Shown here piece after piece: positions 4,031-38,159 of a stretch of DNA of 38,159 nucleotides. The notes beneath the pieces were generated by a model. The model ran no database searches, was not told the DNA's origin, and saw only the letters and a program-made list of their open reading frames with translations. Position 1 is the stretch's first letter. The number at the start of each line of letters is the position of its first letter. The position numbers and the translations under genes were made by a program. Origin of the DNA: a virus (Duplodnaviria > Heunggongvirae > Uroviricota > Caudoviricetes). Location: positions 1 through 38,159 of the IMG/VR virus record IMGVR_UViG_3300045988_123528; one strand, given 5' to 3'.

Positions 4031-4557
4031 TTTCGTAACTCCGATAATTCGTTAAAGCGTTCCATAAACATCCCGTAGGCATGGCCTGGAGCCAGTGGAA
4101 TCACGTTGAACATCTCTGTTGCCGGGATACCTTCCAGTACAGGCCAGAAAGAGCCATCATCAAGCCCGAGATCGCGGCGTTCGGTTGCCAGCATGATGAG
4201 ATCGGCATATTTCACGGGCGTACTCATAACTGGGGGTAACCCGTATTTCTCACGGATTACGGCGTCTATTTTTTCTTCCATTTGTTTATAGTCAGGAAGA
4301 AGGCGTTTCAGTGGTGCGGGAATGTCCTGGCAATACGCTTCTGTTGCATCATGCATTAACGCTTCAAAAGCAAATTCCTGCGGCACCAACTGGCTGCAAA
4401 GAACCGCATGTTGGGCGACGCTGTAGAAGTGCGAAAGATGACCGGCAAAGCGACAGATATTTGAAAGGGAAACCGCGATATCGTTAATATCGATGTCGTC
4501 TTTATTTATCCTGTCATAATAAAAATGCTTCCCAGAAAAAGTTTTGATAAATGACAT
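4021..4557 (-). CDS. HD-domain phosphohydrolase (YfdR-like)
   Basis: HxxxxxxxxxxxHD-type motif (HAVLCS...LMHDATEAY); start set at the internal ATG; track ORF extends to 4584. Confidence 0.65.
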   Translation of the reverse strand: MSFIKTFSGKHFYYDRINKDDIDINDIAVSLSNICRFAGHLSHFYSVAQHAVLCSQLVPQEFAFEALMHDATEAYCQDIPAPLKRLLPDYKQMEEKIDAVIREKYGLPPVMSTPVKYADLIMLATERRDLGLDDGSFWPVLEGIPATEMFNVIPLAPGHAYGMFMERFNELSELRKCA

Positions 4558-7763: not shown

Positions 7764-7795
7764 TTCTGCTTAACGTAATTTAACGGGAGACAGAA

Positions 7796-7993
7796 ATGCG
7801 GAAATCCGACGTGATTAATTATTTCGGCGGAGTTTGTAAAACCGCCGAAGCCCTAGGTATTAAGCATCCGTCTGTTTCAGAGTGGCCTGAGATTATTCCT
7901 GAAGGCCGAGCGTACCAGTTAGAAAAAATTACTAACGGGAAACTGAAAGTTGACGTGTCTTTATATCAAAAGACTAACAGTGCTGCGGCATAA
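7796..7993 (+). CDS. cro: Cro-like transcriptional regulator
   Basis: 65 aa, divergent from cI, SD GGGAGA; Cro/YdaS-like sequence. Confidence 0.65.
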   Translation: MRKSDVINYFGGVCKTAEALGIKHPSVSEWPEIIPEGRAYQLEKITNGKLKVDVSLYQKTNSAAA

Positions 7994-33785: not shown

Positions 33786-34490
33786 ATGCATCGTATAGAC
33801 ACGAAAACCGCGCAGAAGGATAAGTTCGGCGCGGGTAAGAACGGTTTTACCCGTGGTAACCCCCAGACCGGCACACCTGCCACCGATCTGGATGATGACT
33901 ACTTTGACATGTTGCAGGAAGAACTTTGTAGCGTGGTGGAGGCCTCCGGTGCCAGCCTGGAGAAAGGGCGGCATGACCAGATGCTTACCGCACTTCGTGC
34001 GCTGCTGTTAAGCCGCAAGAATCCGTTTGGCGATATCAAATCGGATGGCACTGTGCAAACGGCTCTCGAAAACCTTAGTTTAGGAGAAGGCTCAGCATTG
34101 CCTGTTGGCGTACCTGTTCCGTGGCCTTCAGTCACACCGCCAACAGGCTGGCTGAAATGCAACGGTGCAGCTTTTTCTGCCGAAGAGTATCCGGAACTGG
34201 CAAAAGTTTATCCGACAAATAAATTGCCAGATTTACGCGGCGAATTCATTCGTGGGTGGGATGATGGAAGAGGAATTGATTCAGGACGGACTCTCCTGTC
34301 TGCTCAGGACGGGAGCATTGAGGCACACGGCCATGATTACAATGGGGCCATCTATACTTCTAGCGGTCCTTCCTGGGCTAATACGACGGATGCGGGACAC
34401 CGGGCATATTCGGGATTTACATCATCATATGGCGGGAGCGAAACCCGTCCACGAAATATTGCATTTAACTATATCGTGAGGGCTGCATAA
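33786..34490 (+). CDS. Tail fibre protein
   Basis: 234 aa; Gly-rich C-terminal region; followed by a tail fibre assembly gene. Confidence 0.7.
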
Positions 34491-35089
34491 TGGATAACGC
34501 CGTATTAAATAGCGAGCTTATTGCCACGAAGGCGGGGAATATTACTGTTTATAACTATGATGGTGAGACGCGGGAATATATTTCTGCATCAACTGAATAT
34601 CTTGCAGTGGGTGTCGGTATTCCAGCATATTCCTGTTTAGACGCTCCTGGTACATCTAAGGCTGGTTATACAATTTGCCGTTCTGTGGATTTAAAATCAT
34701 GGGAATATGTGTCAGACCATCGCGGTGAAATCGTCTATAACACCGAAACGGGAGAATCGAAAGAAATCACAGCTCCGGGTGATTATCCTGAAAATACAAC
34801 CACTATCGCCCCGTTAACGCCATACGATAAATGGGATGGTGAAAAATGGGTGACGGATATCAATGCTCAGCACGTAGCGGAAGTGGAAGCGGCAGAGCAA
34901 CAGAAATCTGTGCAGCTTCTGTTCGCAAAGGAAAAGATCATTCTTTGGCAGACTGAATTACAGCTGGGAATTATCAGCGACGAAGATAAAGAAAAACTAA
35001 TATCTTGGGTGAACTATATCAAAGCTGTTCAGGCAGTAGATACCCAGAAAGCTCACAATATCATCTGGCCTAAAAAACCATTCATATAA
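34490..35089 (+). CDS. Tail fibre assembly protein (Tfa)
   Basis: 199 aa, coupled to the fibre gene. Confidence 0.75.
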   Translation: MDNAVLNSELIATKAGNITVYNYDGETREYISASTEYLAVGVGIPAYSCLDAPGTSKAGYTICRSVDLKSWEYVSDHRGEIVYNTETGESKEITAPGDYPENTTTIAPLTPYDKWDGEKWVTDINAQHVAEVEAAEQQKSVQLLFAKEKIILWQTELQLGIISDEDKEKLISWVNYIKAVQAVDTQKAHNIIWPKKPFI

Positions 35090-35091
35090 AT

Positions 35092-35118
35092 AAACGCCCC
35101 TTATGGGGCGTATTTTGC
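35092..35118. terminator. Bidirectional terminator between tail genes and the acyltransferase
   Basis: ACGCCCC TTAT GGGGCGT hairpin plus T-run; overlaps the acyltransferase stop. Confidence 0.7.
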
Positions 35119-36270
35119 TGCTTGCACGTTATTCTTTGGAAGAATTTTATTTGATAAATAATTGGAAAATTTTATCGCGTTATCATCAATTAGCAATTTA
35201 AAAATTAAAGCTGCAAGTATTGAAGATAATAAAGTGATTGGGAAAGTAATAAGTAAAGACTTTCCGTATGAAACTCCTGCATCACCAAGCTTAATTACGA
35301 TCAAAGAAGATATTGAAGCTATTAATGGAAAATGCACCAGATAAAGAGAGTATGATACATCTCCAAGAAATTTACAGGTTTTTGTTTTGAATAAATTTGA
35401 GATAACTATTGATTTATCAATTGCTATAATAAGAAACATTGAACCAAAGGCTTGAGAAACAATTCTCAAATCAAAGTAAGTTATGTCACTGTTATTTATC
35501 CAGATACTATGTTCAGTTATAAAATATGGGTATGAACCTAGGTAACATCCTAGTAAAATAAACATAAAGATAATTGTGGTATTAATTTTCTTTATATTAA
35601 CTGAAACATCTGCACAAATCACCCCTAATATAAATCCTATTAGATGACTTGAGCTAAATACCACAATACCTAAAGTATAAAAAGCAAACCTAATTCTGGT
35701 AGTGCAAACTAGTGGGACCAGAACGAGTACAAGAATTGAGCCAACCAATTCGGTGTGAATGGTCCATAATACTGGGTTTAATGTTTGAACTCCGTAAAAA
35801 TATGTACCAATACCCCCTTCCCATACCGCATTCAGTAATGTCATTGTAGTTGGCATCGCTGGGATTACTTGTGATAAAGAGTACACTGCAGTTTCTGATG
35901 AATGAAATCCAATCGTTGTCATCAGAATAAAGGAAAATATAGTAGATGCAATGGTAGGTATTGCAAGACGTGGGTATCTCTTGATAATGGATTTAGAGTA
36001 CCATTCTAGCCCCTTCCCTTTGAAAAAGGGAATCGATAGAACCATTCCACTCAAAACGAAGAAAAGCATTACGGCAAAGTGACCATTATATAATATATTA
36101 AATGGAGTTTCACTTATGTATTTCTCTCCATAATGATCTATCTGATTTTGAACAAAAACAGATGGTAGAAAGAATTGCATGAAATGGCTTATTAAAACTA
36201 TCAAGCAAGCTATACCACGAATACCATCCAGTGCGTGATCTCGGGAAGGCGTCGTTAATTGTTGAACCAT
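35101..36270 (-). CDS. Acyltransferase family 3 integral membrane protein (OafA/Oac-like)
   Basis: LDGIRGIACLIVLISHF N-terminal motif and many TM segments; AT-rich relative to the rest of the prophage; SD GAGGA before this ATG. Confidence 0.8.
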   Translation of the reverse strand: MVQQLTTPSRDHALDGIRGIACLIVLISHFMQFFLPSVFVQNQIDHYGEKYISETPFNILYNGHFAVMLFFVLSGMVLSIPFFKGKGLEWYSKSIIKRYPRLAIPTIASTIFSFILMTTIGFHSSETAVYSLSQVIPAMPTTMTLLNAVWEGGIGTYFYGVQTLNPVLWTIHTELVGSILVLVLVPLVCTTRIRFAFYTLGIVVFSSSHLIGFILGVICADVSVNIKKINTTIIFMFILLGCYLGSYPYFITEHSIWINNSDITYFDLRIVSQAFGSMFLIIAIDKSIVISNLFKTKTCKFLGDVSYSLYLVHFPLIASISSLIVIKLGDAGVSYGKSLLITFPITLLSSILAALIFKLLIDDNAIKFSNYLSNKILPKNNVQAAKYAP

Positions 36271-36512
36271 CAATTCCTCACACATTGTAATAAAGTATTA
36301 AAATAAAATAGTAAAAGCAGAATATACAAATACGAAAAGCGGAATTATACTTTACAAGAGTGCTTGATGCTATTGTTTTGTCGAGATTTATAATCTGATC
36401 TTCTGTAGATGTTGTCCTGGCATTGTCCAATCATGATCTATGGGCTGGCTGGCGAACTTTCGATAGTGCGAGTATTGAATGATTTCCAGCCGTTACCGAT
36501 TTTACGTGTTAA

Positions 36513-36761
36513 TTAGTGAACAAACCACTCGTCAGCAGATTCCCAGGTATCTTTCAGAGTCTCCTGAACAAAAGTTTTTGCAGAATCCTTATCTGCGGTG
36601 CGTGTAACAGAAAGGCCATCGTTGCTGGTGGCTTTTACGATCACCTCTACATCGTCATAACGTTTACTGATGCGTCGGGTTAATTCTTCCTTTAACGCAT
36701 CCACAGCACCGGTTGGCATTTTAGTCATTTTTTCTTTGGCTATGCAGATTTCAATACGCAT
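36513..36761 (-). CDS. DinI-like protein
   Basis: 82 aa; MRIEICIAK...[11 protein letters not shown] closely matches DinI; SOS boxes in promoter. Confidence 0.85.
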
Positions 36762-36773
36762 AAAAGTCCCTCT

Positions 36774-36825
36774 ATACTGTGTTTGTATACAGTATTATTT
36801 TTAACTGTATGGATAAACAGTGTCA
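36774..36825 (-). promoter_or_regulatory. SOS-regulated promoter with two LexA boxes
   Basis: TACTGTGTTTGTATACAGTA and AACTGTATGGATAAACAGTG (CTGT-N8-ACAG); minus-strand TTGACA-17-TAAAAT; coordinates +/-2. Confidence 0.75.
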
Positions 36826-37920
36826 AGAGGTCTTATTTCTGCTCCTTTGGAGCTCTTCAAAACGATTATGTAAAGATTTCGGATACAGTTCGGTATATAC
36901 CTGCCATAGCACGTTTAATGAACGATGCCCTGTAACCTGGGCGACTTCCTCAATACTAAAACCAGCCTCAAATAAGCGACTTGCCCCTTCTCTACGCAAA
37001 TCATGGTATCGCAGATCTTTAATACCTAATTTGCTTCTTACCCTCTGGAATCCCGCAGTAACAGAAGTGCTGTTATATGGAAAAATGAATTCTGATTTTT
37101 TGGGTTGTCGTTGGACGATATCCCAGGCTTCCCCAAGCAAGGCTACTTTCATATGGTTGCCTTCCTTTTTACGTGGATCTTTCCTGTCTCTTACGAGTAT
37201 GGATTTTTGTTCCTGATCGAGATCCTCCCATCGTAATCGGCATACTTCACCGATTCGCATACATGACCACACAGAAAATTTGAGGATATCAACGAACGGA
37301 ATTTTTGAGCATTTATGTGTAGATCGTTGTTGAAGACCTTCAATGAGCATGTCCAGTTCATCAGATGCCGGTCTACGATTACGACGATTTGATTTACCAA
37401 TTAAACCAAGTTTAAGTAGATATGGACGAGCGGCTTTTGCTGGGTTTGATGTGTAATTAATTCCATATACAGGTTTGGCAGCATCCAGAACACTACCAAG
37501 ATAACTAACATCGTGGCTAACTGTAGCTGGACCTGCACCAGCGTTGTTTCTTAGCCTGCAATGTTCAATTACGTCATTTTCTGTCAGTTCAGATAGTTTG
37601 ATCGCGGAGATGTCACTATCCATAAGCAGTTCCAGCACATATCTTTTAGTACGGCCTGCTTTACCTCCGGCATTTGGGTCATTTAAATATTTGTGTAGTA
37701 AGTCACGGACTGTAAGTCCGTCAACTGCATTTGATGATGGAATGCCATATAGATCTAATTCCATCACTTTCTGTGTGCCCCATGTTTTGGCATGAGCATG
37801 TTTAGGGAATGTTTTGCTTTCCCTGTAAGTGATAACACCTTTTTCTTTGATAATCACATTACAGCGATAGCGTGGTGTGCCATCGGATTTTAGTCGTTTC
37901 TCTATGTTATAGTACGCCAT
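36823..37920 (-). CDS. int: Tyrosine integrase (dusA-associated integrase type)
   Basis: 365 aa; catalytic R..HDLRR..H...Y motifs; adjacent to the dusA junction. Confidence 0.9.
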   Translation of the reverse strand: MAYYNIEKRLKSDGTPRYRCNVIIKEKGVITYRESKTFPKHAHAKTWGTQKVMELDLYGIPSSNAVDGLTVRDLLHKYLNDPNAGGKAGRTKRYVLELLMDSDISAIKLSELTENDVIEHCRLRNNAGAGPATVSHDVSYLGSVLDAAKPVYGINYTSNPAKAARPYLLKLGLIGKSNRRNRRPASDELDMLIEGLQQRSTHKCSKIPFVDILKFSVWSCMRIGEVCRLRWEDLDQEQKSILVRDRKDPRKKEGNHMKVALLGEAWDIVQRQPKKSEFIFPYNSTSVTAGFQRVRSKLGIKDLRYHDLRREGASRLFEAGFSIEEVAQVTGHRSLNVLWQVYTELYPKSLHNRFEELQRSRNKTS

Positions 37921-37939
37921 TACACGACCTCGTTATTTC

Positions 37940-37976
37940 GGGTTCCCATAAAACGTGGGAACCTGTGCGGGAACCT
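37940..37976. repeat. Putative integrase arm-type sites next to attR
   Basis: GGGTTCCC, GTGGGAACCTGT and CGGGAACC clustered; the 11-mer is shared with the attL side. Confidence 0.4.
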
Positions 37977-38008
37977 AACGCGAGAAAAATAGCCTGAAAT
38001 GTTCAAAA

Positions 38009-38159
38009 ATGCACGATAATCATGAAACACAAAAAATTAATCAAACCAGCGTGATGCCTGAAAAAACTGGTGTTTACTGGAATTCTCGGTTTAGCATTGC
38101 TCCTATGCTCGACTGGACGGACAGACATTGCCGCTATTTCTTGCGTCTGCTTTCCCGCA
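38009..38159 (+). CDS. dusA: dusA 5' end (partial; continues beyond the window), phage-supplied replacement
   Basis: [50 protein letters not shown] is the conserved DusA N-terminus. Confidence 0.8.
38086..38112. repeat. attR core region
   Basis: Same TCGGTTTAGC...ATGCTCGA segment as attL. Confidence 0.5.

Follow-up and report, generated by a model that had tools for sequence, protein, structure and literature searches.

The AT3 gene of a dusA prophage

What does a temperate Escherichia coli phage stand to gain from a membrane acyltransferase gene set beside the genes for its tail fibre? The question is raised by the window analysed here, the whole 38,159-nt stretch of IMG/VR record IMGVR_UViG_3300045988_123528, in which a gene of the acyltransferase-3 family (hereafter the AT3 gene) faces the tail-fibre genes. 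A preliminary description had read this gene as an AT-rich moron with a function in lysogenic conversion or superinfection exclusion. Our analysis favors a similar answer, with a probability of roughly 0.55: the gene would be moron cargo of a temperate E. coli phage and encode a functional integral-membrane O-acyltransferase of the stand-alone, AT3-only kind, with the O-antigen as acceptor. The broader claim, that the product is an active AT3 acyltransferase acting on some extracytoplasmic glycan, is very probable.

35101–36270, minus strand: coding sequence of an AT3-only (PF01757) membrane acyltransferase, 389 aa (open reading frame, Pfam, RefSeq WP_157915790.1, motifs, AlphaFold2 model, ratio of non-synonymous to synonymous substitution rates)

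The list of open reading frames (ORFs) gives a minus-strand frame from 36285 to 35101 that is open for 394 codons. The start of the coding sequence is the ATG at 36270. A Shine–Dalgarno (SD) sequence, GAGGA (36279–36275), lies 4 nt 5' of this codon, and RefSeq uses the same start for the identical 389-aa product in E. coli WP4-S18-ESBL-09. Both agree with the length of 389 aa in the preliminary description, which was also correct, per the ORF list, in placing the gene on the strand opposite to the tail genes. The G+C content (GC) of the gene is 0.333 and its GC at third codon positions (GC3) 0.264, compared with 0.571 and 0.615 for the baseplate J gene and a GC of 0.501 for the whole window. 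This comparison of composition bears out the AT-rich stretch, and the foreign composition, separate strand and predicted terminator of its own make the moron-like character ascribed to the gene clear. A 50-aa ORF with a TTG start at 36278–36430 (minus strand) was rejected as a gene because this stretch lacks conservation across the homologous loci.

Family, motifs and fold

The product matches the Pfam profile PF01757 (Acyl_transf_3) with E = 6e-27 and 95 bits (cut-off 31), the match covering residues 17–361 and profile positions 2–323 of 326. This is the sole Pfam domain in the 389-aa protein. A match to PHROG 3333, 'O-acetyltransferase', was also obtained (E = 1.7e-26). Membership of the AT3 family is thereby confirmed, and the hydropathy profile and an all-helical AlphaFold model agree with the polytopic membrane protein that had been proposed. 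No Pfam match to an SGNH domain was found in the protein, which stops at residue 389; in the AlphaFold2 model about 25 residues follow the last helix, and there is no 11th helix.

Three AT3 motifs have been described, R/K-X10-H, FFXISG and RXXR (PMC7448272; PMC9833829), and all are present. In an alignment of 88 homologues (28–97% identity) the invariant residues are R18, H29, F70, F71, S74, G75, R98, R101, W169, T170, E174, S306, Y310, H313 and D362. The R/K-X10-H motif in transmembrane helix (TMH) 1 corresponds to the invariant pair R18/H29; in pairwise alignments with Oac, WecH and OpgC this pair falls opposite their Arg-X10-His residues. The FFXISG-type motif in TMH2 reads F70-F71-V-L-S74-G75, with both phenylalanines, the serine and the glycine invariant, and TMH3 bears the RXXR motif, R98-Y-P-R101 with both arginines invariant, at its cytoplasmic end. 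The residues of R/K-X10-H and RXXR are essential for activity in OafA, OafB and Oac, the glycine of FFXISG is also critical in Oac, and in a model of OafB the motif residues line a pore holding acetyl-coenzyme A (acetyl-CoA) (PMC7448272; PMC9833829).

The AlphaFold2 model, calculated with the homologue alignment, is an all-helical bundle with a mean predicted local distance difference test (pLDDT) score of 91.6 and a predicted template-modelling (pTM) score of 0.90. Its sole meaningful fold neighbor in the PDB is human HGSNAT with acetyl-CoA bound (probability 0.99, template-modelling score 0.41–0.46), in agreement with the proposal of a TmAT superfamily (PMC12423673). Neither the sequence search nor the fold search of the PDB turned up an AT3-family structure as comparator. 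The fold search of BFVD gave one significant match, an unnamed 637-aa protein, and was uninformative.

Selection on the gene

The ratio of non-synonymous to synonymous substitution rates (dN/dS) is 0.11 against an 81% identical homologue and 0.13 against a 57% identical one. In addition, no copy is truncated in the 11 complete E. coli genomes with the gene, one of which has it in a decayed remnant. These low ratios and intact copies show that the gene is under purifying selection, and it almost certainly encodes an active enzyme.

The gene might instead be an inert hitch-hiker, silent DNA (repressed, for example, for its AT-richness) that persists beside recombination-prone tail-fibre modules. 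H-NS is the usual silencer of AT-rich DNA, and the GC of 0.33 and GC3 of 0.26 would suit such a passenger, as would the rarity of the gene (11 of 5,426 complete E. coli genomes) and a promoter that was not demonstrated. Nevertheless, the selection signal (dN/dS about 0.11), the retention of all catalytic residues in homologues of 57% to 100% identity, the intactness of every copy, even in two heavily decayed remnants, and the conservation of the SD sequence and the terminator hairpin make a silent passenger very unlikely. No defence-system model of PADLOC matches the AT3 protein or DinI.

A portable cassette

The AT3 gene belongs to a cassette of about 2.2–2.5 kb (about 34011–36505) that comprises the tail-fibre tip, the tail-fibre assembly gene tfa and the AT3 gene:

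34011–34490, plus strand: tip (C-terminal part) of the tail-fibre gene, travelling with tfa and the AT3 gene (shared homology segment)
34490–35089, plus strand: tfa, tail-fibre assembly protein (Caudo_TAP, Pfam E = 3.3e-32), convergent with the AT3 gene and part of the cassette

Besides the dusA prophage of the window, the cassette was found in three other chromosomal contexts at 95–99.9% identity. The 11 complete genomes with a DNA homologue of the AT3 gene, all at least 99.7% identical, cover the first three contexts below; the fourth was found in a draft assembly that is not part of this genome set.

dusA prophage, eight genomes (e.g. locus L001): whole region shared
myovirus-type prophage, loci L002 (strain C1) and L017 (strain TL20): 34011–36505 at 99.4%
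remnant at tRNA-argW, locus L018 (strain 52F4): 34349–36505, alone between emrY and intS-argW
95%-identical variant at ykgR-proA, locus L020: 34325–36405 at 95% and 36443–36505 at 84%

The DUF2612 and baseplate J genes of L002 and L017 are unrelated to the baseplate genes of the window, and the tfa protein in L002 is 100% identical to that of the window. The variant in L020 belongs to protein cluster P0001, which has 130 members, and hardly any other phage DNA is present at this locus. On the side upstream of the AT3 gene the shared segment ends at 36505 in L002, L017, L018 and L020, 8 nt from the stop codon of dinI. The cassette recombines across prophage backbones that are unrelated to one another, and decayed remnants retain it.

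A sibling dusA prophage (L003) is 97–98% identical to the window on both flanks. Homology is lost at 34289–36442, except for a 90% patch in tfa, and L003 holds there a Pin-type invertible tail-fibre segment with an alternative fibre tip, tfa genes and a recombinase. Because this segment occupies its place, the cassette is one of several alternative 'host-range end' modules.

The tail-fibre gene of the window contains, at 34070–34089 (plus strand), the sequence AAACCTTAGTTTAGGAGAAG, which corresponds to AAACCTTGGTTTGGGAGAAG, the crossover site in the left inverted repeat of the Pin-type segment of L003. The crossover sites of L003 lie at 2604–2623 and 4425–4444; the window has no second crossover site and no pin gene. 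AAACCTTAGTTTAGGAGAAG appears to be the vestige of an invertible host-range switch whose place was taken by the AT3 cassette.

At the other edge, the 63 bp at 36443–36505, just downstream of dinI, are common to the dinI flanks of many lambdoid and Shiga toxin (Stx) phages (96–99% over 36443–36600) and form the constant outer end of the cassette even in contexts without dinI. In the identical record, RefSeq annotates about 36445–36516 of the window (plus strand) as a capsid-protein pseudogene fragment. The 63 bp may be a module-boundary sequence used in recombination.

L018 (E. coli 52F4, NZ_CM147848.1, about 33.6–37.1 kb) and L020 (GCA_050206055.1) are heavily decayed remnants. L018 also keeps intS and, compared with K-12, has the remnant in place of dsdCXA and the remainder of CPS-53. 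The fact that both loci keep essentially only tfa and the AT3 gene suggests that the cassette is retained by the host.

Diverged homologues and distribution

Homologues of the AT3 protein at 81% (L004 and L005) and 69% identity (L006) are encoded tail-to-tail with genes for a Caudo_TAP protein and a Gp53-like fibre, on different tail backbones. The 57% homologue (L009) faces two small convergent genes without identifying Pfam annotation, and the 40% homologues have non-phage neighborhoods. All of these AT3 genes are AT-rich (GC 0.33–0.37). The tfa of L004 matches that of the window only over the C-terminal 66 aa, at 58%, and the tfa of L006 matches at 24%. Co-variation of fibre tip and AT3 was rejected on this evidence: at the loci of the 81% and 69% homologues, divergence is far greater in tfa and fibre than in the AT3 gene itself, so the AT3 gene is linked to the tail-fibre locus and not to one particular fibre specificity.

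A tblastn search of 50,697 phage records returned only two matches at E ≤ 1e-5, in Pantoea phage PA-1 and Tunturi_4. Near-identical DNA in phage records was restricted to the dinI flank (36443–36600), and the AT3 gene was not found among them. Scans of species-representative genomes with the protein and with a five-sequence alignment gave no relative, and IMG/VR holds one identical contig.

Proposed function and choice of acceptor

For donor, acceptor, expression in the lysogen and phenotype we infer the following. By analogy with studied AT3 proteins, cytoplasmic acetyl-CoA would enter a pore in the helical bundle, where R18 and R98-x-x-R101 would hold the CoA 3'-phosphate and H29 would lie near the thioester. 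The acyl group would be passed to a sugar hydroxyl of a glycan at the periplasmic face of the inner membrane. The likeliest acceptor would be the O-antigen, as an undecaprenyl-pyrophosphate (Und-PP)-linked repeat unit or as the growing polymer. The surface of the lysogen would be chemically altered, that is, lysogenic conversion would result, and the pay-off would be changed recognition by phages and antibodies.

The strongest new argument for the O-antigen is one of position. In CPS-53 of K-12, the O-antigen glucosylation genes gtrABS (yfdG/H/I) hold the slot by intS at argW and are followed by tail-fibre assembly genes. The AT3 cassette of strain 52F4 occupies the same slot, on the same side of intS-argW as yfdGHI, with a tail-fibre assembly gene on its other side. 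Because of this gtrABS slot and of a layout matching that of oac in Shigella phage Sf6, acylation of the O-antigen is the preferred reading. According to the preliminary description, phage genes of this family acetylate O-antigen when they occupy such a position. This is true of some members but not of the AT3 family generally, whose acceptors include enterobacterial common antigen (ECA), osmoregulated periplasmic glucans (OPG), capsules, peptidoglycan and Nod factors (PMC9558356). Since AT3 proteins acylate so many acceptors, family membership does not fix the substrate. The preliminary interpretation is partly supported: the kind of element and a position analogous to serotype-conversion modules are borne out, and the substrate and phenotype proposed are putative.

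Several results join this breadth of acceptors in weighing against the O-antigen reading. Sf6 Oac, a characterized member, is only 22% identical over 206 residues, with a pairwise E of 0.002. Among 756 database matches there is no characterized homologue, the nearest named one being a generic 'acyltransferase family protein', and a search of PDB chain sequences with the AT3 protein gave no match at E ≤ 1. BLASTP comparison with WecH (E = 0.27) and OpgC (E = 0.017) aligned the motif region only and was not significant. The greater divergence of fibre and tfa at the homologous loci speaks against a strict pairing of fibre specificity with acetylation. Moreover, a sigma-70 consensus scan found no promoter 5' of the AT3 gene on the correct strand, which leaves expression in the lysogen unproven. 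The fibre tip is about 60% identical to fibres of the Stf/gpH type, namely Stf of HK97 and HK106 and the tail fibre of a P2-named phage. Receptors of this fibre family include the lipopolysaccharide (LPS) core and OmpC, and such fibres are not known as classic O-antigen binders. A fibre tip of this family does not tie the AT3 gene to the receptor that the phage itself uses.

Because of the fibre type and these receptors, a core or ECA acceptor is a serious rival. More widely, a functional AT3 acyltransferase might act on another envelope glycan (LPS core, ECA, colanic acid or another capsule, periplasmic glucans), the benefit lying in phage adsorption or in host fitness unrelated to phages. 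The presence of the cassette in several chromosomal backgrounds is easier to reconcile with a conserved acceptor than with a single serotype-specific O-unit, and AT3-only proteins do act on ECA (WecH), OPG (OpgC), capsules and more (PMC9558356). Nevertheless, no significant similarity links the protein to WecH or OpgC (the NCBIfam model MdoC scores 16 bits, cut-off 338), and its positional equivalents, gtrABS in CPS-53 and oac in Sf6, are specifically O-antigen modifiers. We regard another glycan as possible and hold this alternative tentatively. It is doubtful that the gene represents a distinct, uncharacterized AT3 clade coupled to fibre tip and tfa in a portable 'bind-and-modify' cassette, which would hop from one prophage tail to another, unrelated one, outlast these tails in remnants, mask receptors across a broad host range by way of a conserved acceptor (LPS core or ECA, in place of a serotype-specific O-unit) and might be boosted by SOS read-through from dinI.

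Terminator, upstream region and expression

The following features flank the coding sequence:

35094–35111, both strands: hairpin ACGCCCC-TTAT-GGGGCGT, predicted bidirectional terminator for tfa and the AT3 gene (terminator scan and folding energy)
36271–36505, minus strand: upstream non-coding part of the cassette, with SD sequence GAGGA (36279–36275), TATAAT (36349–36344), no consensus −35 and a GC of 0.31 up to 36442
36513–36761, minus strand: dinI-like gene (Pfam DinI, E = 1.1e-19), upstream of the AT3 gene on the same strand

The convergent tfa and AT3 genes have 11 bases between their stop codons. The hairpin has a perfect 7-bp stem flanked by A-rich and T-rich runs, folds with −14.9 and −14.7 kcal/mol on the two strands (z = −3.5 and −3.1) and contains the AT3 stop codon in its loop. 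It scores as a terminator on both strands, in keeping with the bidirectional terminator of the preliminary description. A hairpin occupies the same place 3' of the AT3 stop codon in L004, L005 and L006, and the hairpin in L009 has a different sequence, which points to conservation of the terminator as a structure and not as a sequence. The SD sequence is conserved among homologous loci, and the upstream regions differ between homologues.

The spacer between the AT3 gene and dinI measures 242 nt. The promoter region that had been described within it does contain a perfect −10 hexamer, TATAAT, but the best −35 hexamer, read by eye, matches the consensus at 3/6 positions and the sigma-70 scan found nothing, so that a promoter is not demonstrated. 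Structure prediction gave neither a stable nor an unusual fold for this spacer (z = +0.8 and −0.5), and an Rfam search of 34000–38159 gave no match, only two sub-threshold chance matches to microRNA (miRNA) families.

Upstream of dinI (36777–36826, minus strand) lie tandem LexA-box-like sites, CTGTTTATCCATACAG (36820–36805) and CTGTATACAAACACAG (36792–36777). Both fit CTGT-N8-ACAG, and they overlap a TTGACA −35 hexamer. On these sites the prophage dinI is predicted to be under SOS control. No terminator between dinI and the AT3 gene was predicted by terminator scan or folding, and SOS read-through from dinI into the AT3 gene may occur. A LexA-box-like palindrome, TACTGTATA-N-ATACAGTA, is also found about 200 nt 5' of the 69% and 57% homologues (L006, about 7795–7815; L009, about 8–27), and in L006 it adjoins a divergent gene for a 129-aa Peptidase_S24 (UmuD/LexA-like) protein. 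These palindromes may be a second, independent link of the AT3 clade to SOS-regulated neighbors, or a coincidence.

This arrangement raises the alternative that the AT3 gene is mainly switched on at induction by read-through from dinI. The enzyme would then mask receptors on the dying cell and its debris and spare the progeny from re-adsorption, and serotype conversion would play no part. The short same-strand spacer, the paired LexA-type boxes with their −35 hexamer, the lack of a terminator-like structure behind dinI and of a consensus promoter directly 5' of the AT3 gene are as this explanation would have it. Nevertheless, the cassettes of L002, L017, L018 and L020 have no dinI upstream, so the linkage is not conserved; upstream regions vary between homologues, and presence in non-inducible remnants fits a benefit to lysogen or host better. 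We consider this alternative quite unlikely and retain acylation of the O-antigen in the lysogen as the preferred reading.

The prophage and its neighboring genes

Several E. coli genomes carry, integrated in dusA, a prophage to which the window is 100% identical. The early genes of this prophage are lambdoid, its head is of the HK97 type and its contractile tail is Mu-like. The gene order toward its end is baseplate J, YmfQ, tail fibre and tfa on the plus strand, then AT3, dinI and integrase on the minus strand, followed by dusA. The tail-fibre gene encodes 234 aa with a Collar domain.

36823–37920, minus strand: tyrosine integrase (Pfam Phage_integrase) at the prophage end adjoining dusA, which is next in the identical genome record

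The placement of the AT3 gene between tail-fibre genes and integrase, as first described, is therefore loosely true, but dinI (36513–36761) intervenes before the integrase. At the far prophage end (about 1–1000 of the window; NZ_AP022098.1, 4707929–4708859) the RefSeq annotation shows a protein with a Panacea domain and a truncated fragment of tRNA-dihydrouridine synthase. The latter is the duplicated 5' end of dusA, typical of dusA-targeting integrases.

Meaning of the cassette

AT3 morons beside phage tail genes have been known since oac of Sf6. The AT3 gene opens no new mechanism; it is a rare, uncharacterized phage-borne AT3 surface-glycan acyltransferase moron. Of added interest are its travel in company with the fibre-tip and tfa genes and its survival in prophage remnants. 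Together the fibre tip, tfa and the AT3 gene form a single mobile unit, which takes the place of an invertible Pin fibre segment and is allelic with gtrABS. The cassette is an example of host-range and surface-modification functions exchanged together among temperate phages.

If active, the enzyme would decorate the surface of its E. coli carrier strains with O-acyl groups, and this decoration could alter serotyping, antibody recognition and phage susceptibility, including susceptibility to therapeutic phages. At least one carrier, MS14385, belongs to sequence type 648 (ST648), a lineage of human clinical isolates (PMC8454413).

Comparison with known systems

The E. coli chromosomal AT3-only proteins WecH (ECA O-acetylase) and OpgC (OPG succinylase) share the Pfam family and the N-terminal motif region with the AT3 protein of the window, and the scores given above do not suggest orthology to either. 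The AT3–SGNH acetylases OafA, OafB and OatA have the same AT3 membrane domain and essential residues. They possess, in addition, a C-terminal periplasmic SGNH domain and an 11th helix, both of which the window protein lacks. The model of acetyl-CoA in a transmembrane pore was derived from OafB (PMC9833829).

The closest match in the phage collection is the acyltransferase ORF081 of Pantoea phage PA-1, with 29% identity over the whole length (E = 2e-29). It likewise lies between tail fibre/tailspike genes and the integrase. ORF081, which is uncharacterized and comes from a phage of a different host genus, is on the strand of the tail genes, whereas the AT3 gene of the window is on the opposite strand.

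The gtr modules of CPS-53 and SfV-type phages consist of three proteins that glucosylate via undecaprenyl-phosphate glucose (Und-P-Glc). The window carries a single acyltransferase of the acyl-CoA type, and the proteins are unrelated. The equivalence of the AT3 cassette and gtrABS is one of position only.

The serotype-converting Oac group (Sf6 Oac, OacB/C/D, PhiV10 Oac) comes nearest in kind. The AT3 protein shares its AT3-only architecture, and the gene shares its location at the prophage end, between tail genes and integrase and in a separate transcription unit, although the promoter is not demonstrated and dinI is interposed. Close sequence kinship to a characterized Oac was not found. Sf6 Oac (OacA), like the window protein, has PF01757 only and no SGNH domain, and its R-X10-H, FFxxSG and RxxR motifs align with those of the window; it is 333 aa long compared with 389 aa. 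Sf6, a P22-like podovirus, cleaves O-antigen with its tailspike; the window phage combines a contractile tail of the Mu type with a short fibre and tfa, and a dinI gene stands before its int. Sf6 Oac 2-O-acetylates rhamnose and is described as conferring serotype conversion and immunity to superinfection (PMC9558356). The layout of the two prophage ends is the same: the tailspike gene of Sf6 is followed by a terminator and by the convergent oac gene, which has its own promoter, and int follows in the orientation of oac at the prophage end.

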